A stretch of DNA of 64,000 nucleotides from NCBI RefSeq assembly GCF_056746865.1, contig NZ_CM163382.1; one strand, written 5' to 3'. Each line of letters starts with the position of its first letter. Position 1 is the first letter of the stretch. The position numbers were made by a program, and so were the translations under genes. Below are positions 1,316-53,483 of the stretch, piece after piece. The notes beneath the pieces were generated by a model. The model was not told the origin of the DNA. It ran no database searches and saw only the letters and a program-made list of their open reading frames with translations.

Positions 1316-1339
1316 CCGACTGTCATGTCGGTTTTTTTA
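1316..1339. terminator. Bidirectional rho-independent terminator (ccgac-tgtcat-gtcgg hairpin flanked by A- and T-tracts)
   Basis: Perfect stem with A-tract upstream and T-tract downstream; lies just downstream of the selU stop on the minus strand; a near copy occurs at 946-967. Confidence 0.6.
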
Positions 1340-1401
1340 TATCTGTATTCTGGTGCAACCATTCTGTTCTCACGACAATCGCCGTTTCAGAATACCGCCC
1401 A

Positions 1402-2511
<1,110 letters not shown>

Positions 2512-2564
2512 TCAAATCAGCTTGCGCGCTATTTTACGCGCCAACGCGCAAGGAAACTTGATTT

Positions 2565-3491: not shown

Positions 3492-3720
3492 CTTCAGGTA
3501 TCCCCTTTTAAATCCGCAAGTTGCGTGATTTTCTTATCCTCTGATTTATCAGTATTTTTACATGATAACCCTGTTCAATTTGTGGACTAAATCTAGTTTT
3601 GGAAAAATATTCCAACTTTTGTGTTGATGTTGTTCTCTTAAGGTTTTAGATTGCCTGTTATTGAAACCAAGCTGACCGGTCGGCGGTGGTTGAACGGAAT
3701 TATGTTATAAGGACAAAAAG

Positions 3721-4203
3721 ATGAAACTTCAGGTATTACCGTTAAGTCAGGAAGCCTTTAGTGCTTATGGCGACGTAATCGAAACGCAGAAACGGGATTT
3801 TTTCCATATTAACAATGGACTGGTGGAGCGTTACCACGATTTGGCGCTGGTTGAGATTCTTGAGCAAGACCGTACGCTTATCAGCATTAACCGCGCGCAA
3901 CCGGCGAATCTGCCGCTGACCATTCACGAACTCGAACGTCATCCGCTGGGTACTCAGGCCTTTATCCCGATGAAAGGTGAAGTGTTTGTGGTGGTCGTGG
4001 CGTTAGGTGACGACAAACCAGACCTGTCAACGCTGCGGGCGTTTATTACCAACGGCGAACAGGGGGTGAATTACCATCGTAACGTCTGGCATCATCCACT
4101 TTTCGCCTGGCAGCGCGTCACCGATTTTCTGACCATCGATCGCGGCGGCAGTGACAACTGTGATGTTGAAAGTATTCCTGAACAGGAACTCTGTTTTGCG
4201 TGA
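3721..4203 (+). CDS. allA: Ureidoglycolate lyase
   Basis: 160 aa; position and sequence match AllA. Confidence 0.9.
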
Positions 4204-4280
4204 CGCCTGCAACCGACTTGCATAAGATAAACTAATTGTTCATTGTTTATGCTCACTTGTAGGTCGGAGTTAACGTAGGT

Positions 4281-5096
4281 ATGACGGAAGTTAGACGGCG
4301 CGGCAGGCCAGGACAGGCGGAGCCTGTGGCACAGAAGGGCGCACAGGCGTTAGAGCGGGGAATTGCGATTCTGCAATATCTGGAAAAAAGTGGGGGAAGT
4401 TCGTCGGTTAGCGATATCTCTCTCAATCTGGATTTGCCGCTCTCCACGACCTTTCGCTTGCTGAAGGTTTTACAGGCAGCGGATTTTGTCTATCAGGACA
4501 GTCAGTTAGGCTGGTGGCATATAGGATTAGGTGTCTTTAACGTCGGTGCGGCGTACATCCATAACCGCGATGTCCTCTCCGTCGCCGGGCCGTTTATGCG
4601 CCGCCTGATGTTACTTTCCGGCGAAACGGTCAATGTCGCGATCCGTAACGGTAATGAAGCGGTATTAATTGGTCAGTTAGAGTGTAAATCGATGGTCAGG
4701 ATGTGCGCGCCACTGGGCAGTCGTCTGCCGCTGCATGCTTCCGGTGCGGGCAAAGCGCTGCTTTATCCGCTGGCGGAAGAGGAGTTGATGAGCATCATTC
4801 TGCAAACCGGTTTGCAGCAGTTTACGCCAACTACGCTTGTGGATATGCCCACCTTGCTGAAGGACCTGGAACAAGCGCGTGAACTGAGCTATACCGTAGA
4901 TAAAGAAGAGCATGTTGTCGGCCTGAATTGTATAGCTTCAGCAATTTACGATGATGTAGGTAGCGTTGTTGCCGCTATCTCCATCTCCGGGCCTTCATCA
5001 AGACTGACAGAAGATCGTTTTGTCAGTCAGGGTGAGCTGGTCAGAGACACCGCCCGCGATATCAGCACGGCGTTGGGACTGAAAGCACATCCATAG
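4281..5096 (+). CDS. allR: IclR-family repressor of the allantoin regulon
   Basis: 271 aa; IclR-type HTH plus effector domain. Confidence 0.9.
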
Positions 5097-5107
5097 TGTC
5101 TGTCGCA

Positions 5108-5133
5108 TCCCGCTCTGCGGAGCGGGTTTTTTT
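5108..5133 (+). terminator. Rho-independent terminator after allR
   Basis: cccgctctgcggagcggg hairpin followed by T7 tract. Confidence 0.7.
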
Positions 5134-5185
5134 GACAAAATTTGAAAGTTGGAAAATTTTTCCAATTAATAGAGGTAGGAATAAA

Positions 5186-6967
5186 ATGGCAAAAATGAGA
5201 GCCGTTGACGCGGCAATGTATGTGCTGGAGAAAGAAGGTATCACCACCGCCTTCGGCGTTCCGGGAGCTGCAATCAATCCGTTCTACTCAGCGATGCGTA
5301 AGCACGGCGGTATTCGTCACATTCTGGCGCGTCATGTGGAAGGTGCTTCGCACATGGCGGAAGGTTATACCCGCGCAACGGCAGGGAATATCGGCGTATG
5401 TCTGGGAACCTCGGGACCAGCAGGCACTGACATGATCACCGCGCTCTATTCCGCTTCTGCTGATTCCATTCCTATTCTGTGTATTACCGGTCAGGCACCG
5501 CGCGCCCGTCTGCATAAAGAAGATTTTCAGGCCGTAGATATTGAAGCAATTGCTAAACCGGTCAGCAAAATGGCGGTTACAGTTCGTGAAGCGGCGCTGG
5601 TGCCTCGTGTGCTGCAACAGGCATTTCACCTGATGCGTTCTGGTCGTCCGGGGCCGGTACTGGTGGATTTACCGTTTGACGTACAGGTTGCGGAAATCGA
5701 GTTTGATCCTGACATGTACGAACCGCTGCCGGTCTACAAACCTGCAGCCAGCCGTATGCAGATCGAAAAAGCGGTAGAAATGTTAATTCAGGCCGAACGT
5801 CCGGTGATTGTTGCCGGGGGCGGGGTAATCAATGCTGACGCAGCTGCACTGTTACAACAGTTTGCTGAACTGACCAGCGTTCCGGTGATCCCAACGCTGA
5901 TGGGCTGGGGCTGTATCCCGGATGACCACGAACTGATGGCCGGGATGGTGGGTCTGCAAACTGCGCATCGTTACGGTAACGCAACGCTACTGGCGTCCGA
6001 CATGGTGTTTGGTATCGGTAACCGTTTTGCTAACCGTCATACCGGTTCGGTAGAGAAATACACCGAAGGGCGCAAAATCGTTCATATCGATATTGAGCCG
6101 ACGCAAATTGGCCGCGTGCTGTGTCCGGATCTGGGCATTGTCTCTGATGCTAAAGCGGCGCTGACGCTGCTGGTTGAAGTGGCGCAGGAGATGCAAAAAG
6201 CGGGTCGTCTGCCGTGTCGTAAAGAATGGGTCGCCGACTGCCAGCAGCGCAAACGCACTTTGCTGCGCAAAACCCACTTCGACAATGTGCCGGTGAAACC
6301 GCAGCGCGTGTATGAAGAGATGAACAAAGCCTTTGGTCGCGATGTTTGTTATGTCACCACCATTGGTTTGTCACAAATCGCTGCGGCACAAATGCTACAT
6401 GTCTTTAAAGACCGCCACTGGATCAACTGTGGGCAGGCAGGCCCGTTGGGCTGGACCATTCCGGCGGCGCTGGGCGTGTGTGCCGCTGATCCAGAGCGCA
6501 ATGTGGTGGCGATTTCCGGTGACTTCGACTTCCAGTTTCTGATTGAAGAATTAGCCGTTGGCGCACAGTTCAACATTCCGTACATCCATGTACTGGTCAA
6601 TAACGCCTATCTGGGTCTGATTCGCCAGTCGCAGCGCGCGTTTGATATGGATTACTGCGTACAGCTCGCGTTCGAAAATATTAACTCCAGCGAAGTGAAC
6701 GGTTACGGCGTCGACCACGTAAAAGTAGCGGAAGGTTTAGGTTGTAAAGCGATTCGCGTTTTCAAACCGGAAGATATAGCACCAGCCTTTGAACAGGCGA
6801 AAGCCTTAATGGCGCAATATCGGGTACCGGTAGTCGTGGAAGTTATTCTCGAGCGTGTGACCAATATTTCGATGGGCAGCGAACTGGATAATGTCATGGA
6901 ATTTGAAGATATCGCCGATAACGCAGTGGATGCACCGACTGAAACCTGCTTCATGCACTATGAATAA
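5186..6967 (+). CDS. gcl: Glyoxylate carboligase (tartronate-semialdehyde synthase), ThDP enzyme
   Basis: 593 aa from ATG 5186 ([19 protein letters not shown]...) with an RBS upstream; the longer track ORF from 5096 is an N-terminal overcall. Confidence 0.92.
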
Positions 6968-16486: not shown

Positions 16487-17536
16487 TTATTGCGCAAAGG
16501 GATTTTTCGTTTCGTATGACGTGTTATAAAGCGCGTCAGAAATTAAATACTGGTAAATATCATCAACAATTTCGATGCCTTCGACGGCGGCTTTGCGTTG
16601 TTTAATATCCTGATCCTGTCCGGGATAATAAACCTGGTTAAAACCGGGCGCGGGGGTTATGGCATTTAATTCGCGCATGGTCTGGCTAAGATGTTGACGG
16701 AATAGTTCGCTGGAGGAGAAAAAGTTCGGGTTAATAACGATATGTAATTGCCCCAAATTACGCCCGGCGTGTAAATCGTCATACATCGAACTAACCTGTC
16801 GCCCGAACGGTAAGCCGAGTAAGACGCCTGAGAGGACGTCAATCATCATCATCAGGCCATACCCTTTCGGTCCGGCGGCAGGGAGCAGGGCGTTAACTGC
16901 AAATGGATCGGTTGTTGGTGCTCCGTTTTTATCGACCGCCCAGGTATCCGGGATAGACATATTACGCGAGCGGGCGTCGAGCACTTTTCCCCATGCCTGT
17001 ACGGTAGTCGCCATATCAAAGGTAAGGATCTCGTCGCCTTCTCCCGGCGCGGCAAAGGCCAGTGGGTTAGTACCGTAGTAAATTTCCGCGCCGCCAAACG
17101 GCACCACCATTGGATCGGACTGGCACATCGAAATGCCAATTAATCCTGCGCGGGCTGCCTGCTGCACAAAATAAGAGATTGCGCCGCTGTGACCCATCCG
17201 GCTGATACCGACCACCGCAACGCCATTTTGCTGGGCGGTTTTGATGGCATGTTCCATACCCATTTTCGCCGCGACCTGTCCGGCAGCATTGTCGGCATGT
17301 AAAATTGCCGAACACGGCCCGGTTTCTTCAAGACGAAATTCCGGTTCACGGTTGGTGCCGCCTTTTGAAATGCGTTCCGCGTAGTATTCCACGCGCACCG
17401 CGCCATGAGAGTGGATCCCTCTGGCATCGGCGTAAACCAATACTTCAGCCACGGTTGCAGCGTGCTCACGTTTTAACCCAGCCTGGCAGAGTTTATTCTC
17501 GATTAGCTGGCGGAGTGTTTCCCGACTGATTTTCAT
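16487..17536 (-). CDS. allD: Ureidoglycolate dehydrogenase
   Basis: 349 aa; Ldh_2 (malate/L-lactate dehydrogenase-like) family. Confidence 0.88.
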   Translation of the reverse strand: MKISRETLRQLIENKLCQAGLKREHAATVAEVLVYADARGIHSHGAVRVEYYAERISKGGTNREPEFRLEETGPCSAILHADNAAGQVAAKMGMEHAIKTAQQNGVAVVGISRMGHSGAISYFVQQAARAGLIGISMCQSDPMVVPFGGAEIYYGTNPLAFAAPGEGDEILTFDMATTVQAWGKVLDARSRNMSIPDTWAVDKNGAPTTDPFAVNALLPAAGPKGYGLMMMIDVLSGVLLGLPFGRQVSSMYDDLHAGRNLGQLHIVINPNFFSSSELFRQHLSQTMRELNAITPAPGFNQVYYPGQDQDIKQRKAAVEGIEIVDDIYQYLISDALYNTSYETKNPFAQ

Positions 17537-35926: not shown

Positions 35927-37090
35927 TTACGCCTTCTTTATATCCTCCATAATTCCAGAGTGGGACATATTTGGGACATTATCACCAAAAATGTCGTCTA
36001 TTTTCCTCGCATGCTCTGTCAAATGATTAGGCGCAAGGTGAGCATACCTACGAACCATTTCTATGGACTCCCATCCGCCCATTTCCTGAAGCACTGATAA
36101 TGGGACGCCTGACTGAATCAGCCAGCTTGCCCAGGTGTGTCTGAGGTCATGGAAACGGAAATCTTCAATTCCTGCACGACGACAAGCTGATAGCCATGAT
36201 GTCTTGCTGTCGATGCGCATCTTCCTGACCGCAGGCGTTGATGTTCCATCTGCTCGCTTAGCCGCCTTGGTATGTACAAACACCCATTTGTGATGCTTGC
36301 CTATTTGATCACGCAACACTTTACAGGCGGTATCGTTCAGCGCCACACCAATGGCGCGGTTTGATTTGCTCTCTTCTGGATTCACCCAGGCAACTCGTCG
36401 CTGCATGTCGATTTGTTGCCATTCCAGATTTATGATGTTCGACTTTCTCAGACCAGTTGCCAGCGCAAACTTGACGACAGATTTCAGTGGTTCGGGGCAC
36501 TCATCAATAAGGCGTTTTGCTTCCTCCTTTTCCAGCCATCTGACTCGCTTGTTTCTGACCGCTGGTATCTTGATGACAGGCGCTTTTTCCAGCCACTTCC
36601 AGTCGCGTTCTGCAGCACGGAGAATGGCCTTTATCATGGCAAGATGCTTTGCCTTTGTCTGAGTTGATACTGGCTTTGGTTCATAAACAGGCAGTTCTTT
36701 ACCTTTCCTGATGGCGGCCTGAACTTTCTGTTTCCATATTTCTTTCGTCTTTCTGTTATGCATTCTGCTTACAGCAGAGTAAATCTTTGCCTCCGAGATA
36801 TCTTTAAGCCTTATACCCTCAAAATGTTCAAGCCAGAACTCAATCCGGCTTTTATCTGAATCGAGAGATTTTTTATCAGCTTTTTCCTCAAGCCATCTTA
36901 GGCAGGCCTCTTCAAAAGTGACATCAGGTAAATCCCCTAGCTTTTCTACTCGCCAGAGTTCTGCTTTTCGCTTGTCGTGCAACTCCTGAGCTTGCCGCTT
37001 GTCCTTTGTGCCAAGAGATTCCTTAATTCGTTTCCCGCCCGGGAGCGAATACGAGGCATACCATATTTCATTTCTGCGGAAGAGTGACAT
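35927..37090 (-). CDS. intD: Tyrosine integrase (DLP12 IntD type)
   Basis: 387 aa; C-terminal catalytic R..HxxR..Y region; adjacent to tRNA. Confidence 0.9.
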
Positions 37091-41095: not shown

Positions 41096-42028
41096 CTATT
41101 CGATTTTTTTAACCATGTAGTTACGTCGTGATGTTCCTAATCTTTCATTGTGAATCTCAGAAACGCTTACTACGAGCGATATTCGTTCACCAACTTTATA
41201 TTTACTTTGAATTTCTCCTAACATATCAATCGGATAAGAAGCCTTTATTTTTCCAAGCTCGCTTGCAATCTCCAATTTCCCGTACATGGATAAAATAGCA
41301 AGTTCGCCTGATATATGCTCATCCGGTAGCTGAATGACCTTCGTTAAAGCTAAGCGAGCATTCAGTTTTTTTATATCTTCTGAAGAAATTGACACTTGTC
41401 TGGTACCATCACTTAAAGGTCCAATCCAAGTAAGATCAAAGTTAAGACTATATTTTTCGCACTCATTTATGATGTTTTTTAGGTTAGCTGTTGATTGCGA
41501 ACCAATTTCGGCAATTTTAGCCGTGAATGTTTCTTCATCAATGGATGAGAGTAGTGCAAAAATCTCCTTAACAGCATGACTGGATACTGTTTCGATGAGC
41601 TCGCAAGAACCAGTAGAAAAAGTAACACCTAACTTCGTCGAACCTGGACGCAAGTCTGCCAATCTCATGTCTAATGATTTTTTAACATCAATCGGCACAC
41701 GACTAGAATCTTTCCCAGATCCAAGTCGGTAAACTGCTTTCTGTACAAGGGATGCGAGATTACCTGAAATTACAGATAGAATATCTAACGGAATAGACCC
41801 GAAATCGACCAAAACACCTTTTAATCTCAACTCCATGAAATCACGTAAAGGATGTTGGTTATCGATTGCACGTTGTCTCTCTCGGAGATCGCTCAGATGG
41901 GAGTCAAGTGATCTAAATATAATGTCATCAGCAAATGATCTCCCCTTATTTTGAGCAAGCAGATCCACATCGCGTTGAATGAACGCAATTCGCTCCTTGA
42001 GGGAGTTGAATGTTTTTTCTTCGCTCAT
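41096..42028 (-). CDS. Hypothetical protein, distal gene of the rexAB-position operon
   Basis: 310 aa; AT-rich; start overlaps stop of upstream 157-aa gene (ATGA); no recognisable family. Confidence 0.6.
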   Translation of the reverse strand: MSEEKTFNSLKERIAFIQRDVDLLAQNKGRSFADDIIFRSLDSHLSDLRERQRAIDNQHPLRDFMELRLKGVLVDFGSIPLDILSVISGNLASLVQKAVYRLGSGKDSSRVPIDVKKSLDMRLADLRPGSTKLGVTFSTGSCELIETVSSHAVKEIFALLSSIDEETFTAKIAEIGSQSTANLKNIINECEKYSLNFDLTWIGPLSDGTRQVSISSEDIKKLNARLALTKVIQLPDEHISGELAILSMYGKLEIASELGKIKASYPIDMLGEIQSKYKVGERISLVVSVSEIHNERLGTSRRNYMVKKIE

Positions 42029-42498
42029 AACATTACCCTCACGAGGCCTTTAGGATTCTCCTTCCGATCAAAACCAAACCACCCTCTCCAGTAACTTCGC
42101 CTTTCACTATAATCGATTTCTGGATGATTTTCAGGCAGCAAAAGAACGTCAATGCTGTAGTTTTCTTTAATAAAATCTCTATTTAACAATGAGCTGACCA
42201 ATGGCATCAGCGTGTTTGGCAAAGAGTTTAGGGCCAAATAATCGACGACCACGAGTATATCTATGTCATCAGGTTCAGGTTTCTCTGTAGTGAATGAACC
42301 ATCGATCCACACTTCAGAGAAACATAGACACTGCTGATTAACAAGTTTAAATTGCTCAATAAGCTGTATAAAATTACAGTATAGCATACTTCTTCTAACG
42401 GATTTTGGGAAGGTGTCGACACAAAGAGACTTGATGCCATCACTATCCATATCATGAAATCCTGCTGTAAGAAGAGGTGGGAAGCTAGGCTTTTCCAT
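42025..42498 (-). CDS. Putative minimal nucleotidyltransferase-fold protein, proximal gene of the rexAB-position operon
   Basis: 157 aa; GS-x9-DxD motif (WIDGSFTTEKPEPDDIDILVVVD) typical of the Pol-beta NTase superfamily; AT-rich. Confidence 0.55.
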   Translation of the reverse strand: MEKPSFPPLLTAGFHDMDSDGIKSLCVDTFPKSVRRSMLYCNFIQLIEQFKLVNQQCLCFSEVWIDGSFTTEKPEPDDIDILVVVDYLALNSLPNTLMPLVSSLLNRDFIKENYSIDVLLLPENHPEIDYSERRSYWRGWFGFDRKENPKGLVRVML

Positions 42499-42579: not shown

Positions 42580-43269
42580 TTAACCATGCTTCCTGTACGT
42601 CTGCGGCATGCTCCCAATAACCTTACCGAAGATGAACACCCGGTTCATCTCGTCTTTCTCGATCGGGTCCCACGGTGAGTAGCTTTTGTTATCAGAGATG
42701 ACCAGCAGCTTATCCTTCATCATTTGCAGGCGCTTTACATGGGCTGTGTCGTCGTACAGAAACGCATAGATACCATCACCGTCGAAAGATTTAACTGTGA
42801 TATCAACGAACAGCAGATCACCTGGTTCGATCGTTCCTGACATGCTGTCACCACGCACGTTAATGATGCGGATATTTTCCGCCTTCCTACCATCGAACAT
42901 GTGACGAGCATCGTCAAACGAGTACTCAACCGAGCGTAGAACTTCTACAAACTCACGGTTGATGACTCCCGGCCCAGCACTGACTTCTATATCAAGAACG
43001 TCAATCTTGAAGTATTTGGAATGGCTGACAGTTGATTGTATTGGTTGCACTGTACTGTCTGACATATTTCCAACGCCAGAAGATAACCATTCTGCGCGCA
43101 CACCCAAAGCGTTCGCGATCTCCACGATTTTAGTTGTTTGATTAGCTTTCCCTGTTTCGATTTTCTGAATAGCAGCCTGGCTAACCCCGACCAAATCCCC
43201 AAGCGCCTTTTGTGTAAGGCCTCGCGCTAATCTGGCTTCTTTAAGTCTTTCTGAGAGTGTTGTTTTCAT
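42580..43269 (-). CDS. cI: CI-like prophage repressor (HTH plus S24 LexA-like autopeptidase)
   Basis: 229 aa from MKTTLSERLKEARLARGLTQKALGDLVGVSQAAIQKIE; C-terminal S24 region (GDSMSGT ... K); divergent from cro. Confidence 0.85.
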   Translation of the reverse strand: MKTTLSERLKEARLARGLTQKALGDLVGVSQAAIQKIETGKANQTTKIVEIANALGVRAEWLSSGVGNMSDSTVQPIQSTVSHSKYFKIDVLDIEVSAGPGVINREFVEVLRSVEYSFDDARHMFDGRKAENIRIINVRGDSMSGTIEPGDLLFVDITVKSFDGDGIYAFLYDDTAHVKRLQMMKDKLLVISDNKSYSPWDPIEKDEMNRVFIFGKVIGSMPQTYRKHG

Positions 43270-43274
43270 AGTCC

Positions 43275-43373
43275 AAATGTACAACCAAGGTTTTATTCCA
43301 TCAAACGAAAATGGTTGTTGACTAAAAACAACCATAGTTTTAATCTTGATTCAAATTAACCACGGAGGTTGTT
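43275..43373. promoter_or_regulatory. Putative OR/pR/pRM operator region
   Basis: Inverted repeat ATGGTTGT-n9-ACAACCAT (43311-43335) plus further ACAACCA/GGTTGTT half-sites between divergent cI and cro. Confidence 0.6.
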
Positions 43374-43604
43374 ATGAACCCAGCTATCAAAACAGCGATC
43401 AATATCGTTGGTTCACAAAAGAAACTGGGCGCTGCTTGCGAAGTTTCACAGCAGGCCGTCTATAAGTGGCTTCACAACAAAGCAAAGGTATCCCCTGAAC
43501 ATGTCGGCAGCATTGTTACGGCTACTGGTGGAGTAGTGAAGGCATACCAGATTCGCCCGGATCTTCCGAAGTTGTTTCCACACACCGAAAAGAACGCAGC
43601 TTAA
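43374..43604 (+). CDS. Cro-like HTH regulator (YdaS-like)
   Basis: 76 aa; HTH KKLGAACEVSQQAVYKWL; first gene rightward of the operators. Confidence 0.7.
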   Translation: MNPAIKTAINIVGSQKKLGAACEVSQQAVYKWLHNKAKVSPEHVGSIVTATGGVVKAYQIRPDLPKLFPHTEKNAA

Positions 43605-43673
43605 ATTTCCATTTCACGCTCTTTAACAATAAGCAATCAACTTAACAGTCAATTCAAACTAAAGGAGTCAATT

Positions 43674-44213
43674 ATGCAACCACTTCCATACCAACAGACT
43701 AGCGGATTTAGCCCGACTGCGGTGATAAATCGTTCTCAAACAAAACAGGTGCCAGGCCACGAAAAAATCCGTGATGCCGTCCGCGCCTGGTCGGCTGTAG
43801 ATAATCAGGATGTCGTTGCCACACTCATTGTGAATGAGTATCGGGAGCAGGGCGGCGGCACCATCGATTTCCCTGATGATGTCAGCCGTGCACGCCAGAA
43901 GCTGTTCCGCTTCCTCGATAACAAATTCGATTCTGAAAAATACCGAAATAACGTGCGTGAACTGACCCCGGCAATTCTGGCGGTACTACCGCTGGAATAT
44001 CGCGGTTACCTGGTTGAGCAGGATAGCTTCATGGCTAGGTTGGCTGAAATGGAAAAGGAACTCAGTGAGGCAAAACAGGCTGTCATTCTCAACGCACCAC
44101 GCCACCAGAAACTGAAGGAAATTAGTGAAGGTATTGTATCGATGTTTCGTGTGGACCCAGATCTGGCTGGTCCATTGATGGCGATGGTTACTACCATGCT
44201 GGGGGCGATATGA
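43674..44213 (+). CDS. CII-position regulatory protein (YdaT/CII-like family suspected)
   Basis: 179 aa; position between cro and O; family assignment from memory, not verified. Confidence 0.45.
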   Translation: MQPLPYQQTSGFSPTAVINRSQTKQVPGHEKIRDAVRAWSAVDNQDVVATLIVNEYREQGGGTIDFPDDVSRARQKLFRFLDNKFDSEKYRNNVRELTPAILAVLPLEYRGYLVEQDSFMARLAEMEKELSEAKQAVILNAPRHQKLKEISEGIVSMFRVDPDLAGPLMAMVTTMLGAI

Positions 44214-44299
44214 CAGGTTCAGAAATGGCGAAAGCCGGTCTGCTGGAACAGAACCGACTTTCAGGTGCAAATCGTAACACACTCATTGCGGGAGGAATT

Positions 44300-45229
44300 A
44301 TGGCAAACACTGCTGAGATATTCAATTTTCCAGTGCCGGATGCGGCACAAAAGGAGCCGCGCGTGGCAGATCTCGATGATGGTTATACGCGCATTGCAAA
44401 TGAGTTGCTGGAAGCTGTGATGCTGGCCGGATTAACACAGCACCAGCTTCTGGTCTTCCTGGCTGTCATGCGCAAAACATATGGCTTTAATAAAAAACTG
44501 GATTGGGTGAGCAACGAGCAACTTTCCGAATTGACCGGGATATTGCCGCACAAGTGTTCTGCTGCAAAAAGCGTTCTGGTAAAGCGTGGGATTCTTATTC
44601 AGAGCGGGCGGAATATCGGCATTAATAATGTGGTCAGTGAATGGTCAACATTACCCGAATCAGGTAAGAAAAATAAAGTTTACCTGAAAGAGGTAAATTT
44701 ACCTGAATCAGGTAAGAAAAGTTTACCCAAATCAGGTAAAGGCGTTTACCCGAATCAGGTAAACACAAAAGACAAACTAACAAAAGACAATATAAAACCT
44801 TTTTCGTCCGAGAATTCTGGCGAATCCTCTGACCAGCCAGAAAACGATCTTCCTGTGGTGAAACCGGATGCTGCAATTCAGAGCGGCAGCAAGTGGGGGA
44901 CAGCAGAAGACCTGACCGCCGCAGAGTGGATGTTTGACATGGTGAAGACTATCGCACCATCAGCCAGAAAACCGAATTTTGCTGGGTGGGCTAACGATAT
45001 CCGCCTGATGCGTGAACGTGACGGACGTAACCACCGCGACATGTGCGTGCTGTTCCGCTGGGCCTGCCAGGACAACTTCTGGTCCGGTAACGTGCTGAGT
45101 CCGGCCAAACTCCGCGACAAGTGGACCCAGCTCGAAATCAACCGGAACAAGCAACAGGCTGGCGTGACAGTCGGCAAACCAAAACTCGACCTGACAAACA
45201 CTGACTGGATTTACGGGGTGGATCTATGA
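44300..45229 (+). CDS. O: Replication initiator O (lambda-like C-terminus, divergent iteron-binding N-terminus)
   Basis: Start at ATG 44300 (MANTAEIFNFPVP) with GGAGG RBS; C-terminal ~110 aa match lambda O (PENDLPVVKPDAAIQSGSKWGTAEDLTAAEWMFDMVK...). Confidence 0.85.
   Translation: MANTAEIFNFPVPDAAQKEPRVADLDDGYTRIANELLEAVMLAGLTQHQLLVFLAVMRKTYGFNKKLDWVSNEQLSELTGILPHKCSAAKSVLVKRGILIQSGRNIGINNVVSEWSTLPESGKKNKVYLKEVNLPESGKKSLPKSGKGVYPNQVNTKDKLTKDNIKPFSSENSGESSDQPENDLPVVKPDAAIQSGSKWGTAEDLTAAEWMFDMVKTIAPSARKPNFAGWANDIRLMRERDGRNHRDMCVLFRWACQDNFWSGNVLSPAKLRDKWTQLEINRNKQQAGVTVGKPKLDLTNTDWIYGVDL
44640..44770 (+). repeat. Origin iterons (ori) inside the O gene
   Basis: Four or more direct repeats of tacc(c/t)gaatcaggtaa(g/a), giving the repeated LPESGK peptide; followed by an AT-rich stretch. 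Confidence 0.75.
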
Positions 45230-45927
45230 AAAACATCGCCGCACAGATGGTTAACTTTGACCGTGAGCAGATGCGTCGGATCGCCAACAACATGCCGGAA
45301 CAGTATGACGAAAAGCCACAGGTACAGCAGGTAGCGCAGATCATCAACGGTGTGTTCAGCCAGTTACTGGCAACTTTCCCGGCGAGCCTGGCTAATCGTG
45401 AGCAGAACGAACTGAACGAAATCCGCCGCCAGTGGGTTCTGGCTTTCCGGGAAAACGGGATCACCACGATGGAACAGGTTAACGCAGGAATGCGCGTAGC
45501 CCGTCGGCAGAATCGACCATTCCTGCCATCCCCCGGACAGTTTGTAGCCTGGTGCCGGGAAGAAGCATCCGTTATTGCCGGACTACCAAACACCAGCGAG
45601 CTGGTTGATATGGTTTACGAGTATTGCCGGAAGCGTGGCCTGTATCCGGATGCAGAGTCTTATCCGTGGAAATCAAACGCGCACTACTGGCTGGTTACCA
45701 ACCTGTATCAGAACATGCGGGCCAATGCGCTTACTGATGCGGAATTACGGCGCAAGGCTGCCGATGAACTGACTTGTATGACCGCGCGAATTAACCGTGG
45801 TGAGGCGATACCTGAACCAGTAAAACAACTTCCTGTCATGGGCGGTAGACCTCTAAATCGTGCACAGGCTCTGGCGAAGATCGCAGAAATCAAAGCGAAG
45901 TTCGGACTGAAAGGAGCAACTGTATGA
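45226..45927 (+). CDS. P: Replication protein P (DnaB helicase loader)
   Basis: 233 aa, near-identical to lambda P. Confidence 0.92.
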   Translation: MKNIAAQMVNFDREQMRRIANNMPEQYDEKPQVQQVAQIINGVFSQLLATFPASLANREQNELNEIRRQWVLAFRENGITTMEQVNAGMRVARRQNRPFLPSPGQFVAWCREEASVIAGLPNTSELVDMVYEYCRKRGLYPDAESYPWKSNAHYWLVTNLYQNMRANALTDAELRRKAADELTCMTARINRGEAIPEPVKQLPVMGGRPLNRAQALAKIAEIKAKFGLKGATV

Positions 45928-46226
45928 CGGGCAAAGAGGCAATTATTCATTACCTGGGGACGCATAAGAGCTTCTGTGCGCAGGACGTTGCTGCGGTAAC
46001 AGGCGCAACAGTAACCAGTATAAATCAGGCTGCGGCTAAAATGGCACGGGCAGGAATCTTGGTCGTTGATGGTAAGGTCTGGCGAACGGTGTATTACCGG
46101 TTCGCTACCAGGGAAGAACGGGAAGGAAAGGTGAGCACGAATCTGATTTTCAAGGAGTGTCGCCAGAGTGCCGCGATGAAACGAGTGTTGGCAGTGTATG
46201 GAGATATGAACTTAAACTTGCTGTGA
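45924..46226 (+). CDS. ren: Ren (Rex-exclusion resistance) protein
   Basis: 100 aa, matches lambda Ren (MTGKEAIIHYLGTH...). Confidence 0.88.
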   Translation: MTGKEAIIHYLGTHKSFCAQDVAAVTGATVTSINQAAAKMARAGILVVDGKVWRTVYYRFATREEREGKVSTNLIFKECRQSAAMKRVLAVYGDMNLNLL

Positions 46227-46474: not shown

Positions 46475-47977
46475 TTAAATTGCATCTGCAAACTCTGGGG
46501 TTTTTCGCTCAGGTATAATTGATGAGTTGCTGTTGTCACTTTTTTTATTTTCATGATTACGAATAGCCAATGACTCATTAAAGTCTTTTGCGACTGCTGT
46601 CTCAATAAATTCAATTTCTGAATCAGAGTGTTTTTTAACAGCTTCTTTGATCTCATCCAGAGTAACATAGAAAAACTCTTTTCTACGATTTACAAGATTG
46701 ACTCTCTTTTTATCGAAGACATCATGTAGTTTTTTTTCTAATGATGGAGCGTCCTCCGAATAAATCATGGCATGTACATCAAAAATAAAAGGAACAGATG
46801 CATCACCGAGCTCATTTACACGGTCTTGCGGATCAAGACGTCGTGTCATGCCTATTTTATAAACATTCTCCCCAAAAGAACCTATGTTCGAAATAATATA
46901 AACATGACCTTGTTTGGTTTGTTGTGCCATGGATAATGCTCTTTGATGCTTTGATTCAGCCTGCGACAAACTCTGTTCTAGTTCGGCAATGCGATTTTCG
47001 AGGCGCTGCTTCATGTCACCAGTAACTTTTTCCATTTCCTTTCTTGCAGCTTCAATTGCTTTTTTATAACGGCGCTCTTCTGCCTCTGCGTCTTGCATGG
47101 CCTTTTCTATTTCTCGTTGTGCACGCTCCTCCTCTCTCATTTGTGCCCTTATTTCTGCCTGTTCTTCTTTTTCTTTCTGTTTTTGCTCACGATATTCATG
47201 GGTAAGCCACAATTCCTCAAGTTTTTTATTGAGGTATTTAGTGTTTATATATATGTGATTTTGCTCGTTTAGTTTATTTATGGCCTCAAATGCCTTTGTG
47301 ATGCGTTCTTCCATTTTAGTGATGTTTTTCCACGTGCAATTGCTAATTGCAGCATCACATTCATTATTAAATGCTCTAGTAGTTAGCCTGATATTTCTGT
47401 CTGTCATTTTTTTACCCTCTGCTCGAGAGCCTTCAACAGTCCATTGGGTTGTACAATATACTGCGCCAGAGTGGGTTTTATCCCGCAGCATTAATTTCTG
47501 TTCATCCCTGATGGATTTTATTTTGTTTTTAAATTGCTCTGAATCTTCAAAATTAAAATGAGGTTCGTAAAATCCTAGTTCGGCTAGCTCAACATCTTCT
47601 GAATAAATAGAAATTTGCCTTACTAGTTTATCATATATTTCTTTCTTCTCTTTATAAGTTCTTCTTAGCTCTTGGATTTGTTTATTGATACCATCCATTT
47701 TTTCAATGGTGTTTGTTAGTTCATTATTGGCATTTTCTTTTACTTTTAGGGATTCTTCTTTTATTATGGAGCATTCTTGCTCTGTTTTCTCAATAAGCTT
47801 CTTACATTCTTCTTCTACATTAAAATAATCTGCAAAGCGAGATTTGTATTCTTCATTTTTTTGATTGCTATCACTTAATTCTAATTGTATTTTTTTGATG
47901 CGTTTGATTGCAGCTATATAAAGAACAAGAACAACCAATAAAAATATGATTGCAAGTAATAGAGGAGTTTGAGTCAT
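46475..47977 (-). CDS. Membrane-anchored coiled-coil protein with C-terminal T5orf172/GIY-YIG-like domain (DUF4041-like middle region)
   Basis: 500 aa; N-terminal TM helix (LLLAIIFLLVVLVLYIAAI); long E/K/R-rich coiled coils; C-terminal GHVYIISNIGSFGENVYKIGMTRRLDPQDRVNELGDASVPFIFDVHAMIY; antisense to flanking phage genes; strongly AT-rich. Confidence 0.7.
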   Translation of the reverse strand: MTQTPLLLAIIFLLVVLVLYIAAIKRIKKIQLELSDSNQKNEEYKSRFADYFNVEEECKKLIEKTEQECSIIKEESLKVKENANNELTNTIEKMDGINKQIQELRRTYKEKKEIYDKLVRQISIYSEDVELAELGFYEPHFNFEDSEQFKNKIKSIRDEQKLMLRDKTHSGAVYCTTQWTVEGSRAEGKKMTDRNIRLTTRAFNNECDAAISNCTWKNITKMEERITKAFEAINKLNEQNHIYINTKYLNKKLEELWLTHEYREQKQKEKEEQAEIRAQMREEERAQREIEKAMQDAEAEERRYKKAIEAARKEMEKVTGDMKQRLENRIAELEQSLSQAESKHQRALSMAQQTKQGHVYIISNIGSFGENVYKIGMTRRLDPQDRVNELGDASVPFIFDVHAMIYSEDAPSLEKKLHDVFDKKRVNLVNRRKEFFYVTLDEIKEAVKKHSDSEIEFIETAVAKDFNESLAIRNHENKKSDNSNSSIIPERKTPEFADAI

Positions 47978-48276
47978 TCGTGCTATTCCTTACGGACAAT
48001 TTAAGACGTTTTGTATTAAATCCTGTTCAATGTGTATGCGGGTGATTGCTACCGCTTACAATCTTCATAATTATCAGTTAGATAGACTCGCTAGTAAATA
48101 ATTTCATTTTTTGCAATATTCTTATTGAATATTTCAATTTATGAAATGAACTCTTTATCCTTTCAAGGTGAAAGGTTTCTTCTTCGGAAATATTTGCTCT
48201 CGTGTGACGTATAAAGACCTTTGATTTTCAAAAATCAGTAGGGAATAATATAGTTACTGTCGGCCTGAACACCCGG

Positions 48277-48375
48277 TGGTGGGGTTGCGCTAAACGGGGA
48301 CGTTTATGCGCACACACAATCCAAACTCTCATCTCCATTCACAGATGCAGAAATGCACCTACGATTTTTTACATT
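48277..48375 (+). repeat. Direct repeat copy 1 (~90% identical to 50221-50315)
   Basis: gcgctaaacggggacgtttatgcgcaca...cacagatgcagaaatgcacctacgatttttt. Confidence 0.85.
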
Positions 48376-48467
48376 CGGTGTTTTACTTCGACAGCCAGAA
48401 TTGGGAGTCTCTATTCGTCTGGCGGCTAAAGGTGATATGGAAATCGTTATGTTTTGGCCTGAGGTAG
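48306..48467 (+). CDS. YlcH-like small ORF, divergent paralogue (within direct-repeat copy 1)
   Basis: 53-aa ORF MRTHNPNSHLHSQMQKCTYDFLH... homologous to the 33-aa ORF at 50240; possibly non-functional. Confidence 0.3.
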   Translation: MRTHNPNSHLHSQMQKCTYDFLHSVFYFDSQNWESLFVWRLKVIWKSLCFGLR

Positions 48468-48789
48468 TTGTAACTGTTGTAGCAGCTATGGATGTGATCA
48501 TCATGGTGTCCATTTACTGGGGTTGACGACATGATTTATCCGGCGCTATATTCTGTGCGTTGCCGCAAAATCGGCACACGGGATTGGCGTCCCGGGATAC
48601 TACTCAACGCATACCGCGTTAAGCGGTTTTTTTGTGCGCTAAGCACGGCTATGCCCAAATTATGGTGGGCTGTGTGAGGGCTTCTTCGGAAGCGCCGGGT
48701 TTGAGTAGCCGGTTACGCCAACCTTACACAGTTCACCACCAGTCGATTGGCGTCGTTGGTGGTGATGGTTAACCTGATGAGGTGATACT

Positions 48790-49398
48790 ATGACTACTCA
48801 ATTAGCATTCCACAAAACGACGTTTACCCCGATTTGCCACAATAACAGAATTTGGCTTACTGCCACTGAAGTTGGTTTAGCACTGGAATATGCGGACGAT
48901 AAAGCAGTTCAGCGCATTTACTCTCGGCACTCAGATGAATTCACAGATATGATGACAAGGGTGGTCAAAGTGACCACCCCTCGTGGAATGCAGGAGTCTC
49001 GAGTATTTAGCCTTCGCGGAGCCCATTTGATCGCCATGTTTGCTCGTACTCCTGTGGCCAAAGAATTCCGCCGCTGGGTTCTGGATATTCTCGATCGAGA
49101 AGTTCAACAATCCCCAATCACAAAACAATTCACTGATAACGAACTTTGCACACTCGCCTGGTTATGGCGAGCAAGTGATACGATGTTAACCGCCTGCCAG
49201 AACGTTACGCCCCTTCTTCAGGTCGCAGAGCATCGCGAAGCAGGTAGATTCACTTCAATCGAACAAGAATATCCTCGGATACTCAACAGGGCGCGAGAAA
49301 TCCTTGCCAGAGAAACGGCGCATGTAAAATTCCAACCGTGGCAGGATGATAAGTGGAGTCGTGTGTTACCATATTTCCGTCAGAATCTGTTGCAATAA
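48790..49398 (+). CDS. Bro-N/antirepressor-like protein
   Basis: 202 aa; N-terminal Bro-N-like region (LAFHKTTFTPICHNNRIWLTATEVGLALEY...SRVFSLRGAHLIAMFARTPVAKEFRRWVLDIL). Confidence 0.6.
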   Translation: MTTQLAFHKTTFTPICHNNRIWLTATEVGLALEYADDKAVQRIYSRHSDEFTDMMTRVVKVTTPRGMQESRVFSLRGAHLIAMFARTPVAKEFRRWVLDILDREVQQSPITKQFTDNELCTLAWLWRASDTMLTACQNVTPLLQVAEHREAGRFTSIEQEYPRILNRAREILARETAHVKFQPWQDDKWSRVLPYFRQNLLQ

Positions 49399-49416
49399 AG
49401 TCACTAGTTAGAAATA

Positions 49417-49458
49417 CTGCCAGCATTCTGCGATGACGGAAGTGCTGGCATTTTTTTT
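49417..49458 (+). terminator. Rho-independent terminator after the Bro-N gene
   Basis: ctgccagcattc...gtgctggca hairpin followed by T8. Confidence 0.7.
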
Positions 49459-49633
49459 GGTAATGTGCGAGTCCATTTCATAAAATACGGGTACTGGAAC
49501 TGGACGATATAATCTAAAAGATACCATTATCAGTAGCATTAAAATCGCTATGTGCCGATACGGATATAAATTATATTGATTGTTCACATACCTTATTGGA
49601 TATTACTGAGGGGTGTTTATATAAGGTGTAACG

Positions 49634-50143
49634 ATGATGTGGAACTTTGACAGTGCCGACTTAAGTGCAATAGCAGCAGGCATTTCTGCGTTTGGCACAT
49701 TAGCCGCAGCGGGGTCGGCGCTTGCAAGTTGGTGCACGTCAAAAAAAGCGCTGCAGCTACAAAATAGAGTTTACCTTTATGAGTCTTTAAAGGCTTGCGC
49801 TGAGAGAGCCAATTCATCAGCTAAAGATAAGCGCGGATCTGAATGGAGCGTTAATGATGCAGCGGATATCATCAGGTGCCTAGTACGGGCGATGGAGCTC
49901 ATCAAGCAGGATAGCCAGCAGAAAGAAGGTAATCAGGCATTAATGTTGAAACAGTACTTTGTTAATCTGCTAATAATGGAACTGTACGAGGAAGTTCATA
50001 ACGGTGATGCGGCTGATTCTGTTTTTAAAAGTACGGAACCTACACAAGTACTTGATAACTTATGGAGCAAATGGCAGGAGGCTATAGCTTTTTTTGATAT
50101 TTGGAATTACCCAGTTGCGACTGAGGAAGACTTGGCAGACTAA
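49634..50143 (+). CDS. Hypothetical protein with N-terminal hydrophobic helix
   Basis: 169 aa; AT-rich upstream region; no recognised family. Confidence 0.5.
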   Translation: MMWNFDSADLSAIAAGISAFGTLAAAGSALASWCTSKKALQLQNRVYLYESLKACAERANSSAKDKRGSEWSVNDAADIIRCLVRAMELIKQDSQQKEGNQALMLKQYFVNLLIMELYEEVHNGDAADSVFKSTEPTQVLDNLWSKWQEAIAFFDIWNYPVATEEDLAD

Positions 50144-50220
50144 TTTTCAGCACATTTGATTTCCAATAATCAACCAGCCATAATCATGCCATTGGAGCTT
50201 GAACAACTCCGGTGACTTCT

Positions 50221-50315
50221 GCGCTAAACGGGGACGTTTATGCGCACATACAATCCAAACTCTCTTCTCCCTTCACAGATGCAGAGATGCACCTGCGATT
50301 TTTTGCATCCAGCGT
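50221..50315 (+). repeat. Direct repeat copy 2
   Basis: See copy 1. Confidence 0.85.
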
Positions 50316-50341
50316 TTGACCTCTGCGGAGGTGAAGCGTGA
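50240..50341 (+). CDS. ylcH: Small protein YlcH-like (33 aa)
   Basis: [33 protein letters not shown]; stop overlaps the ybcN GTG start. Confidence 0.5.
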
Positions 50342-50793
50342 ACCTCCCACAAGACGGCATCAAATTGCATCGTGGTAACTTCACCGCTATCGGCCAGCAG
50401 ATCCAGCCTTATCTGGAGGAAGGCAAATGCTTTCGCATGGTGCTTAAACCGTGGCGTGAGAAACGCAGTCTTTCCCAGAATGCACTCAGCCACATGTGGT
50501 ACAGCGAAATCAGTGAATACCTCATCAGCAGGGGTAAAACGTTCGCCACTCCAGCTTGGGTAAAAGATGCTCTCAAACACACATATCTCGGTTATGAAAC
50601 CAAAGACCTGGTTGATGTCGTAACCGGTGAGATCACCACTATCCAGTCGTTACGCCATACCTCCGATCTTGATACCGGAGAGATGTATATCTTCCTGTGT
50701 AAGGTTGAAGCCTGGGCGGTGAATATTGGCTGCCACCTGACTATTCCGCAGAGCTGCGAGTTCCAGCTGCTGCGCGACAAGCAGGAGGCGTAA
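50338..50793 (+). CDS. ybcN: DLP12-type YbcN (putative DNA base-flipping protein)
   Basis: 151 aa; position upstream of ninE-ybcO-rusA. Confidence 0.75.
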
Positions 50794-50963: not shown

Positions 50964-51246
50964 TTTGAGAAAAGCAGCGCGTGGTCGGGAATGCCAGGTA
51001 AGAATCCCTGGCGTATGTAATGGCAATTCTGAGACGTCTGTACTGGCACATATCCGGCTGGCTGGATTGTGCGGTACCGGTATCAAACCGCCAGACCTGA
51101 TTGCCACCATTGCATGTTCTGCCTGCCACGACGAAATCGACCGCCGCACGCATTTTGTTGACGCTGGATATGCAAAAGAATGCGCGCTGGAAGGTATGGC
51201 GAGAACGCAGGTTATCTGGCTGAAAGAGAGGGTAATTAAGGCGTGA
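50956..51246 (+). CDS. ybcO: YbcO-like (DUF1364) Cys-rich protein
   Basis: 96 aa from [23 protein letters not shown]...; multiple Cys. Confidence 0.7.
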
Positions 51247-51605
51247 ATACTTACCACATCACACTACCCTGGCCTCCGAGCAATAATCGCTATTACCGCC
51301 ATAATCGCGGGCGCACGCACGTCAGCGCAGAGGGGCAGGCATACCGCGATAACGTCGCCCGAATCATTAAAAACGCAATGCTGGATATCGGCCTGGCTAT
51401 GCCTGTGAAAATCCGCATTGAGTGCCACATGCCGGATCGCCGTCGCCGTGACCTGGATAATCTGCAAAAAGCCGCTTTTGACGCACTCACTAAAGCAGGT
51501 TTCTGGCTGGATGATGCTCAGGTCGTTGATTACCGCGTTGTGAAGATGCCTGTTACCAAAGGTGGGAGGCTGGAACTGACCATCACCGAAATGGGGAATG
51601 AATGA
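51243..51605 (+). CDS. rusA: Holliday-junction resolvase RusA
   Basis: 120 aa [18 protein letters not shown]... Confidence 0.9.
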
Positions 51606-51742: not shown

Positions 51743-51827
51743 AGTCAGAGATAACAATCAACTAATACTGTTTTGTTGATTTTTGCTTGTAATTGGCGTT
51801 CTGGTCTGAGTTTTGTGGAGTAAGTTG

Positions 51828-52211
51828 ATGCGTGATATTCAGATGGTTCTTGAGCGTTGGGGAGCGTGGGCGGCTAATAATCATGAAGATGTGACCTGGT
51901 CGTCCATTGCCGCCGGTTTTAAGGGATTAATTCCTTCAAAAGTAAAATCTCGCCCGCAATGTTGTGACGATGACGCGATGATCATTTGCGGGTGCATGGC
52001 CCGTCTGAAAAAGAACAACAGCGATTTGCACGATTTATTAGTAGATTATTATGTAGTCGGTATGACATTCATGTCACTGGCAGGTAAGCATTGCTGCTCT
52101 GATGGTTATATCGGGAAAAGGTTACAAAAGGCTGAGGGCATAATTGAAGGGATGTTAATGGCATTAGATATCCGGTTAGAGATGGATATCGTTGTTAATA
52201 ACTCTAATTAA
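51828..52211 (+). CDS. quuD: Late-gene antiterminator Q (QuuD type)
   Basis: Cys-rich ([12 protein letters not shown] ... CC); last gene before the late-promoter region; start could be 51813. Confidence 0.7.
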
Positions 52212-52400: not shown

Positions 52401-53483
52401 TTAGAACTGGTAAACCAGACCTACAGCAACGATGTCATCAGTATCAATACCAGCTGTTTTGGTAAACTTACTATCGTCAATTAAGTTGATTTTGTAATCA
52501 ACAAAAGTGGACATGTTTTTATTAAAGTAGTAAGTAGCACCGACATCGACATACTTGACTAAGTCTCGGTCACCATGAACACCAAGGTCTTTACCTTTTG
52601 ACTGAAGGTAAGCAACAGATGGGCGCAGACCGAAGTCAAACTGATATTGTGCTACTGCTTCAAAGTTTTGTGCTTTGTTTGCAATATGGTTATTACCAAA
52701 AACGGTCATATTCTGAGTTTCAGAATATGTGGTAGCCAGATAGATATTGTTCGCATCATATTTCAGGCCTGCAGCCCATACTTCCGCATTTTTGCCGGAG
52801 GCATTGAATTTGCTCTTACCATAGGCGACCTGACCGTCAGTGCGATCTGATTTAGCATAGGTTGCACCCACGCCGAATCCTTCATACTCATAAGTAGTGG
52901 AGAAACCGAAACCATCACCATTGGCTTCAGTTACGTCAGTGCGGTCATTTTTACCCTGATACTGAGCAGCAAAGTTCAGGCCATCGACCAGACCAAAGAA
53001 GTCGTTGTTACGATAAGTTGCAACACCAGTAGTGCGACCAGTCATGAACACATCTGTTTGGGTCCAGGTATCACCACCGAATTCTGGCAGGACGTCAGTC
53101 CACGCACCGATGTCGTATGCTACACCGTAGTTACGGCCGTAATCGATTGAGCCGTAATCACCAAATTTCAGGCCTGCAAATGCAAGACGGGTTTTGTCTT
53201 TGGAAGAACCTTGAGATTCAGCGCGGTTGCCTTTGAATTCATATTCCCACTGACCGAAACCAGTCAGTTGATCGTTGATTTGGGTTTCACCTTTGAAGCC
53301 AAGACGGGCATAAGTAGTATCACCATCATCTGCATCATTAGAGGAGAAGTAGTGCTTAGCATTAACTTTCCCGTACAGATCCAGCTTGTTACTGTCTTTA
53401 TTATAAATTTCAGCTGCCTGAGCAGACATCGCCATCAGTACTGATGCAGCTACAGCAGAAATTGCCACTGTTAATTTTTTCAT
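52401..53483 (-). CDS. nmpC: General porin (OmpC/OmpF/NmpC family), uninterrupted
   Basis: 360 aa; signal peptide [23 protein letters not shown]; C-terminal ...GLVYQF. Confidence 0.88.

Follow-up and report, generated by a model that had tools for sequence, protein, structure and literature searches.

The window analysed here is a stretch of 64,000 nucleotides of contig NZ_CM163382.1 (assembly GCF_056746865.1) and comprises, as judged from its list of open reading frames (ORFs), a DLP12-like lambdoid prophage lying beside sfm-type fimbrial genes. The locus in question is located between the ren-like gene of this prophage (45924-46226 in the ORF list) and ybcN (50338-50793, + strand, in the same list; an Orf/NinB-family protein, NCBIfam PRK09741, E 1e-83, phrog_72), the first gene of the conserved ybcN-ninE-ybcO-rusA-ylcG-Q block. 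It contains two direct copies of an element of ca. 170 bp, copy A (48221-48389) and copy B (50156-50341), both on the + strand. Directly to the left of copy A lies the left-flank cargo of the locus, a PD-Lambda-1 defence gene (46475-47977, - strand) coding for a DUF4041-type protein of 500 amino acids (aa; PADLOC PD-Lambda-1, E 1.9e-198). Between the copies are situated sequences of the isrK and C4 RNAs, the antirepressor gene ant of the Bro-N type (48790-49398, +; 202 aa) with its own terminator, and a cargo ORF of 169 aa (49634-50143, +). The arrangement around the repeats is 100% identical in E. coli strain 118UI, and the isolated phage PhiR26_1 shares the gene order across the region, with 100% identity to the window in the first repeat and in the isrK-C4 stretch, so the locus is compatible with a viable phage; the counterpart of the 46475-47977 gene is labelled PD-lambda-1 in the PhiR26_1 annotation.

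An earlier note on this DNA described direct repeats of about 90% identity at 48277-48375 and 50221-50315, each containing the start of a small ORF, the second being the 33-aa ylcH-like gene immediately upstream of ybcN, with the Bro-N gene, its terminator and the 169-aa ORF between them. All these features are present, and the repeats are real: a repeat search yielded one family with two copies of 104 nt (48286-48389 and 50220-50323), 89% identical without gaps, whose starts are 1934 bp apart, in agreement with pairwise alignment. The location given in the note is correct and the exact ends are slightly off, since 48277-48285 falls outside the high-identity block, which runs 8-14 nt further 3'. 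The small ORFs extend from 48306 to 48467 (53 aa) and, as ylcH, from 50240 to 50341 (33 aa), and the ylcH stop codon overlaps the GTG start of ybcN at 50338. Further upstream, the segments 48221-48285 and 50156-50219 are 59% identical, with an alignment score of 42 versus 5.6 +/- 6.5 (maximum 34) in shuffled controls (n=1000). Because significant homology reaches these additional 65 bp, the repeated unit is of ca. 168 bp (48221-48389 and 50156-50323), with 78% identity between the copies over the whole 168-169 bp. When the 64-kb window is searched with a covariance model made from related copies, exactly these two places are hit, one in copy A (48252-48377, 136 bits, E about 1e-26) and one in copy B (50186-50311, 154 bits, E about 1e-30). 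Chance similarity of the repeats was thus ruled out by the repeat search, the covariance model and the shuffled-alignment scores. The repeats do contain ORF starts, as the note had it; they are, however, more than that, being parts of a conserved element whose promoter-like hexamers and covarying hairpins had been overlooked, as had the two RNAs isrK and C4 and, next to copy A, a small hydrophobic ORF.

The anatomy of the element was read from 81 unique aligned copies, taken from genomes of E. coli, from phages and from IMG/VR contigs, and from 20 further copies in other genera, found by a 24-nt pattern. Homology among the loci begins exactly at a TTGAT-N8-ATCAA palindrome (48221-48238 in copy A, 50156-50173 in copy B) overlapping promoter-like hexamers, i.e., conservation starts 84 bp upstream of the ylcH ATG. 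In the two window copies the promoter-like sequence set in this palindrome is TTGATT-17-(C/A)ATAAT, with the -35 hexamer at 48221-48226 and 50156-50161 and the -10 hexamer at 48244-48249 and 50179-50184; among the 69 unique upstream regions, 41 carry TTGATT-17-CATAAT and 59 close variants, while two loci devoid of the palindrome carry TGTTATAAT in its place. There follow hairpin 1 (48254-48282; 50188-50216) with a conserved 9-nt loop, CYTGAACAM (CYUGAACAM in RNA), and hairpin 2 (48287-48311; 50221-50245) with a GGGA loop and the ylcH start codon in its 3' arm (the ylcH-like ATG at 48306 in copy A). Downstream of hairpin 2 the element consists of a C-rich, G-poor linker, the invariant hairpin 3 (48342-48361; 50276-50295) and a T-rich tract (48365-48370; 50299-50304). 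Homology of copy A to copy B stops at 48389, and copy B (fold z = -3.6) includes in addition hairpin 4 (50312-50339), in which the ribosome-binding site of ybcN is buried.

The stems of hairpins 1 and 2 are wholly different between lineages and are nevertheless still complementary. Hairpin 1 is found in the versions CACCGGAG/CTCCGGTG, TGCCAG/CTGGCA, and CGACAGA/TCTGTTG, and hairpin 2 in the versions TAAACG/CGTTTA, TTTAAG/CTTAAA, and TTTGAG/CTCAAA. An alignment of 37 copies with MAFFT followed by RNAalifold mis-aligned the variable stems and gave only a weak consensus, and was replaced by an alignment based on a covariance model, which was built from 19 copies and found 92 copies in the loci searched. 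Covariation was counted on 67 distinct copies and 27 pairs, with 500 shuffles as controls. In the observed alignment 96.9% of the cells pair, compared with 84.8% in the shuffled ones, both-sided changes occur at 18 of the 27 pairs, and none of the 500 shuffles reaches the observed values; slid controls show only 24-41% pairing. G-U cells number 89 and A-C cells 29, an excess which favours RNA of the + strand as the structured molecule.

No match of the element was found in Rfam 15 (the best hit has 16.9 bits against a gathering score of 105, E 1.1), and a scan of 16 kb gave none for it either. The element is absent from lambda and HK022; thus it is not universal among lambdoid phages and does not correspond by homology to the lambda tR2 region. 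The hairpin 1 loop was considered as the boxB of an N-utilisation site and rejected, as the motif is present only in the two elements, and the boxA-like CGCTCTTTAACAA at 43612-43625 (+), 3' of cro, where nutR would be expected, is followed by no similar hairpin and by no obvious boxB. Copy A was likewise dismissed as the promoter of isrK, which has a promoter of its own 135 bp downstream of the repeat. A side observation concerns hairpin 3: in Enterobacter sp. BIGb0383 (NZ_RJKQ01000002.1, locus L173, 2035-2950) a CRISPR array with a 61-bp period and the repeat GGTTTATCCCCGCTGGCGCGGGGAACAC contains a 32-nt spacer, TTGTCACAGATGCAGAAATGCACCTGCGATTT, matching the invariant hairpin-3 part of the element, so that this sequence has been acquired as a CRISPR spacer.

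Constraint on ylcH was assessed with 41 distinct alleles kept of 53 unique ATG-started sequences, all 41 being open for exactly 33 codons. The polymorphic sites are distributed over codon positions 1, 2, and 3 as 14, 12, and 13, and the distinct changes comprise 12 synonymous and 32 nonsynonymous ones (73% nonsynonymous; 21% synonymous expected by chance), which means that the peptide shows no sign of constraint. The start codon and the open frame are conserved, and in all B-type copies inspected by eye the stop codon and the start of the following gene overlap, even where that gene is other than ybcN. Moreover, hairpin 4 around the downstream ribosome-binding site is rebuilt by compensatory changes in other genera. 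The features of a regulatory upstream ORF, namely start, frame, stop/start overlap, and a ribosome-binding site placed in a hairpin, can all be recognized in the sequence, and ylcH may accordingly be regarded as a candidate ORF of this kind, coupling translation into the first nin gene. As to expression, the sole hint comes from a transcriptome table of K-12, in which ylcH RNA changes 2-fold.

The ylcH-ybcN junction characteristic of copy B is present in 2937 of 5426 complete E. coli genomes, i.e., the element stands upstream of ybcN in more than half of them, and the copy A junction in 307. The element is also found in prophages of Enterobacter, Citrobacter, Lelliottia, Trabulsiella, and Huaxiibacter. 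In an unbiased IMG/VR sample there were 106 B copies, 16 A copies, and no third context. Copy A is fused to the unit downstream of it at 48389/48390, and the fusion point is the same in all A copies, which points to one old fusion event that has since spread.

Three independent pairs of loci with near-identical flanks differ by the presence or number of the unit lying between the copies. Compared with the window, locus L001 has a PD-Lambda-1 flank 97.5% and a ybcN flank 95.7% identical and lacks the 1.9-kb unit, having in its stead a single chimeric element with the junction within an 89-bp overlap. L030 and L113 form a second gain/loss pair, with a 169-bp overlap and the junction in the repeat. 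L047 contains two 2.3-kb units, 88% identical to each other, where L060 has one; each tandem unit of L047 (IMG/VR UViG_2917891409_000001, 1237-6020) consists of isrK, C4, ant, a minus-strand gene of 226 aa, and the element. Such a tandem duplication is the product expected from unequal crossover between element copies. In addition, three different right halves of the element follow one and the same left half, and in four-gamete tests several pairs of sites show all four combinations, a result that recurrent mutation could also produce. The chimeric halves and the four-gamete tests are better explained by general homologous recombination than by a site-specific mechanism. The recombination between ylcH-like copies proposed in the note is supported for gain, loss, and duplication of the whole unit. 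Exchange of cargo through the two copies is not supported; recombination between them can only add, delete, or duplicate the entire unit.

The comparison across related prophages does reveal different cargo between the ylcH-like repeats: by the distance between their copies (1482-2463 bp), the loci that have both can be divided into at least seven classes, with different genes between the copies. When the 700 bp upstream of copy B are grouped by sequence, 96 non-identical loci give 23 cargo clusters and the 97 loci of the unbiased sample give 22; nine cargo clusters are found upstream of copy A, and three cargo types, depending on the locus, precede either A or B. The cargoes comprise PD-Lambda-1, BstA (3.6e-121), AbiLi/AbiLii, KwaA of Kiwa (5e-88), and a member of the PADLOC 'Hydrolase' family, PDLC03008, and also proteins with weak TIR, HEPN, and PRTase matches, YbcL/YbcM, EmrE, an alpha/beta hydrolase, and several unannotated ones; several known defence systems thus alternate at one syntenic position, from ren to the nin region. 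PD-Lambda-1, which in the window flanks copy A, adjoins a single element copy followed by ybcN in loci L001, L104, L112, and L122. In DLP12-type loci, ybcK is followed by a truncated ant, of which the part from window position 49088 onwards is left, then by one variable gene, a single element copy, and ybcN. Since these single-copy loci vary in the same manner, the variable slot extends from the 3' end of ant and its terminator (about 49400-49450) to the start of copy B (about 50150). Every alternative cargo, and many are anti-phage defence systems, ends exactly at the start of an element copy, which makes the element the constant border on the right side of a hotspot for cargo and defence genes located between ren and nin. 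The notion of a modular hotspot of cargo exchange therefore stands, and that of a slot delimited by the two repeats does not, its borders being ant and the element.

We consider it probable that the repeats are the best-conserved two-thirds of two copies of a regulatory module of ca. 170 bp, whose duplication makes the antirepressor unit gainable and losable and which borders the hotspot. The module would be driven by the sigma-70-like promoter TTGATT-17-CATAAT, hairpin 1 being situated at about the predicted start of the transcript, and the GGGA loop of hairpin 2 would be placed as the ribosome-binding site of the ylcH upstream ORF, with the AUG in the 3' arm. Copy B, which occupies the usual position of the element, may then constitute a translation-coupled, possibly attenuating, leader for the ybcN-rusA-Q block, in which ylcH would terminate on the start codon of ybcN and the ribosome-binding site of the latter would be hidden in hairpin 4. 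In copy A the same module would be fused to a unit composed of a 29-aa ORF, the operon of isrK, C4, a short ORF and ant, and one cargo gene. As the copies are direct repeats, the 1.9-kb unit can be deleted, re-inserted, and duplicated by general homologous recombination; all three states are seen in population data, from which we infer the homologous-recombination pathway.

Several points speak against this reading. The promoter, the transcription start site, and the function at the RNA level are predictions. In a lysogen, constitutive transcription from a promoter upstream of Q would do harm, hence some control must exist, and the palindrome was rejected as an immunity operator, as there are no copies at the right operator OR and only the two element sites and chance-level matches were found. 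The covariation counts rest on a model-fitted alignment, with compensatory stems readable in unfitted sequences as well; hairpin 3 never varies and is thereby neither supported nor refuted, and there is a small probability that the hairpins are those of single-stranded DNA. The function of the element as a tR2-like terminator is doubtful: a consensus scan finds a terminator-like site in copy B only, the copies differ in their U-run, and in the fold of minimum energy this run is paired with purines lying upstream of it. Finally, extant alleles do not tell insertion from deletion.

A more far-reaching and rather unlikely reading is that the ca. 170-bp unit is an undescribed class of cis-acting phage regulatory RNA, a promoter-proximal leader of two hairpins kept directly downstream of every inserted cargo gene. 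Such a leader would re-start or insulate transcription and translation into the nin-Q block, possibly as a put-like modifier of RNA polymerase resisting terminators or as a leader doubling as a small RNA (sRNA), and would serve as a portable docking module making the site tolerant of cargo insertion. The resemblance of the element to put sites, which we presume, is one of layout only.

The promoter could also drive a trans-acting RNA of ca. 115 nt, made up of hairpins 1 and 2, a C-rich seed region, and hairpin 3 with the U-tract, the copies being paralogous sRNA genes. This explanation, which can coexist with the leader model, seems unlikely to us. The layout, in which a promoter and a 5' hairpin are followed by an unstructured C-rich stretch, another hairpin, and a U-rich tail, does resemble Hfq-type sRNAs, and in one K-12 dataset ylcH RNA changes without ybcN, but the U-tract is variable and set apart from the hairpin, an sRNA would not need the conserved ORF start, frame, and stop overlap, no Rfam family is matched, and no paper on such an RNA was found in the literature searched. 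Even less likely is that the repeats are an inert linker, i.e., duplicated starts of small genes devoid of a function of their own and acting as homology patches for cassette insertion. They indeed serve as recombination substrates, and the sequence of the ylcH peptide is unconstrained. However, such a linker would explain neither the conservation from the promoter-like hexamers onwards, 84 bp before the ATG, nor two hairpins covarying over six genera, nor the retention of the ORF frame and of the stop/start overlap with different downstream genes, and the cargo slot is bordered by ant and the element instead of by two repeats.

It is highly improbable that the ylcH paralogues code for a peptide that is itself functional. 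Both copies do have an ORF with a plausible ribosome-binding site, and the motif SQMQKCTCDFLH recurs in the peptide; this motif, however, falls on the invariant nucleotides of hairpin 3, there is no excess of third-position changes and nonsynonymous ones prevail, and the copy A frame differs among variants by a 4-nt indel, one variant having an internal stop. The weakest proposal, that of an attC-like site of a dedicated recombinase such as the serine recombinase YbcK of DLP12-type prophages, draws on the cassette-like arrays of cargo plus element at the locus, the conservation of hairpin structure beyond that of sequence, and the proximity of ybcK in DLP12-type loci, and is about as improbable, given that no recombinase lies at the site in the window, in PhiR26_1, or in most both-copy loci, the crossover points vary among alleles and map to several intervals, the left borders of the cargo bear no repeat, and the A-type junction is one fixed fusion in all A copies.

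The regulatory-module reading can be set beside systems already described. The region upstream of orf33 of phage 82 (GenBank X92588) contains the same element, with 160.7 bits to the covariance model. The annotation of the record marks, at homologous positions, putative -35 and -10 signals, together with an inverted repeat labelled 'possible regulator-binding site', a ribosome-binding site, and orf33. This 1996 record concerns a single putative copy and is silent on covariation and the second hairpin, on the behaviour of orf33 as an upstream ORF, and on the duplication and the role in the hotspot. It is said to be the work of Mahdi, Sharples, Mandal and Lloyd from 1996. Boundary sequences of lambdoid mosaics, short and conserved, at which homologous recombination shuffles modules, were reportedly described by Juhala et al. 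in 2000 and Clark et al. in 2001. The element differs from these in being structured, equipped with promoter-like hexamers, and present twice in direct orientation, which gives rise to products of unequal crossover. In the defence hotspots of P2 and P4 prophages many alternative defence genes occupy a fixed position between conserved flanks (Rousset et al. 2022, PMC9122126; Vassallo et al. 2022, PMC9519451). The hotspot in the window belongs to another phage family and another position, from ren to nin in DLP12/phage-82-type lambdoids, and unlike those its right border is a repeated regulatory element. The literature searched yielded nothing specific on ylcH, an sRNA near ybcN, or the ren-nin hotspot, and no functional study of the element.

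The element provides a simple sequence landmark for a rich cargo and defence slot in DLP12/phage-82-type prophages, and the cargo types recorded there, at least 23 and many of them unannotated, make up a ready list of candidate defence genes. It also offers a concrete case in which a directly duplicated regulatory module would, through ordinary homologous recombination, drive the gain, loss, and tandem amplification of an antirepressor module, and hence of the circuitry of prophage induction. Should the leader control the expression of ybcN, rusA, or Q, it would have a bearing on when late genes are expressed in a large family of prophages.

The interior of the segment appears, from its component features, to be an antirepressor module of a known kind, with isrK, C4, and a Bro-N protein, as in P1 immI and the isrK-anrP locus of Gifsy-1. 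It begins with a candidate hydrophobic ORF of 29 aa (48437-48526, +; MEIVMFWPEVVVTVVAAMDVIIMVSIYWG), preceded by a good ribosome-binding site, AAAGGTGAT, and with a stop overlapping the -35 hexamer of isrK. The frame of 29-31 codons is kept in three sequence variants, including one with an in-frame 6-nt indel, and is interrupted by a stop at codon 7 in an O157-type copy (L002). The annotated 57-aa ORF (phrog_4612) was rejected as a real gene for its 5' half, which contains a frame-breaking 4-nt indel, and only the 3' 29-31 codons are conserved in frame. The product resembles a small membrane peptide or toxin.

The putative isrK promoter, a strong promoter-like site TTGACG-18-TATATT (48523-48552, +), scores 10/12 and is followed by the isrK sRNA (48561-48633, +; Rfam 58.7 bits, gathering score 50), within which a scan for terminator-like sites finds a hairpin with a T-run (48613-48627, +). 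A putative c4 a1/b1 target region overlaps isrK (48546-48598, +), its score of 39.6 bits (c4-a1b1) being below the gathering score of 46.7. C4 antisense RNA itself (48658-48743, +) scores 74.8 bits against a gathering score of 45, and its CGCCAA (48716) is complementary to TTGGCG at 48584 (b1) and at 48747 (b2), the latter just upstream of the ant ribosome-binding site. An orf45-like short ORF (48632/48662-48772, +; 46/36 aa) overlaps C4 and ends 18 nt before the ant ATG. Ant has Bro-N (7.6e-10) and P22_AR_C (6.2e-17) domains in Pfam and belongs to the Ant families of PHROG, and its gene is followed by an intrinsic terminator with a hairpin at 49419-49449 and T8 at 49451-49458 (+; fold -23.2 kcal/mol, z -3.3).

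In Gifsy-1 the isrK-orf45-anrP-isrJ locus comprises the isrK sRNA, which has a promoter of its own and a leaky terminator, the short orf45, translationally coupled to the antirepressor that follows, and this antirepressor, of the Bro-N type; its regulation has been described (PMC4825925). An isrK-like sRNA with a promoter and a terminator, a short ORF, and a Bro-N antirepressor are common to both loci. The Gifsy-1 locus lies downstream of antQ, whereas that of the window is situated between ren and ybcN, behind an element copy and the hydrophobic ORF; the antQ and isrJ flanks of the Gifsy-1 type are not found here, copy A and the PD-Lambda-1 gene lying upstream, and the Rfam scan gave no isrJ match at E below 1. 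In the immI region of P1 and P7 (c4 - icd - ant; Rfam C4 RF01695, c4-a1b1 RF03163), C4 is placed between complementary target sites ahead of the antirepressor gene, and the window shows the same order with putative target sites. The window phage differs in being lambdoid and in having a short Ant of the Bro-N/P22_AR_C type and an a1b1 match below the gathering score.

In E. coli A2 (NZ_CP028772.1, locus L005, 2036-2888) genes for Arc-family DNA-binding proteins followed by one for a 234-aa Ant replace isrK-C4-ant, an arrangement that looks like P22 immI, with the C-terminal part of Ant homologous to that of the window Ant. As L005 has Arc-type genes at the same position, the antirepressor control module is itself exchangeable. 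Sequences resembling isrK-C4, with about 70-77% identity, occur in ca. 200 phage records, mostly of Shiga toxin (Stx)-converting phages (e.g., VT2-Sakai, 17141-17384). An obligatory link between isrK-C4-ant and the element was ruled out, since these ca. 200 records are mostly of the Stx type and none of the 27 element-bearing phage records is.

The 169-aa cargo ORF (phrog_1779), preceded by a promoter-like site of its own (49457-49486), has no match in Pfam, PADLOC, or PDB, and is found in only 14 protein clusters. Its AlphaFold2 model (predicted local distance difference test, pLDDT, 70.7) predicts a helical domain behind one long N-terminal helix (residues 11-63), the start of which has low confidence. 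Matches in AFDB50 are to proteins annotated as DUF4760 (TM-score 0.78-0.81), whose fold the predicted structure resembles.

According to the ORF list, the remainder of the prophage comprises the integrase gene (35927-37090, -), the repressor and cro region (near 42580-43600), O (44210-45229), and P (45226-45927) to the left of the locus. To its right are rusA (51243-51605), separated from ybcN by ninE and ybcO, Q (51813-52211), and an nmpC-like porin gene (52401-53483, -). Just past the 3' end of the repressor gene there are two genes (41096-42498, -) for proteins of 157 and 310 aa, which match A and B of the PADLOC candidate defence system PDC-M63 (E 7e-43 and 4e-42). The pair, at what is presumably the position of rexAB in lambda, would be a second defence locus of this prophage.

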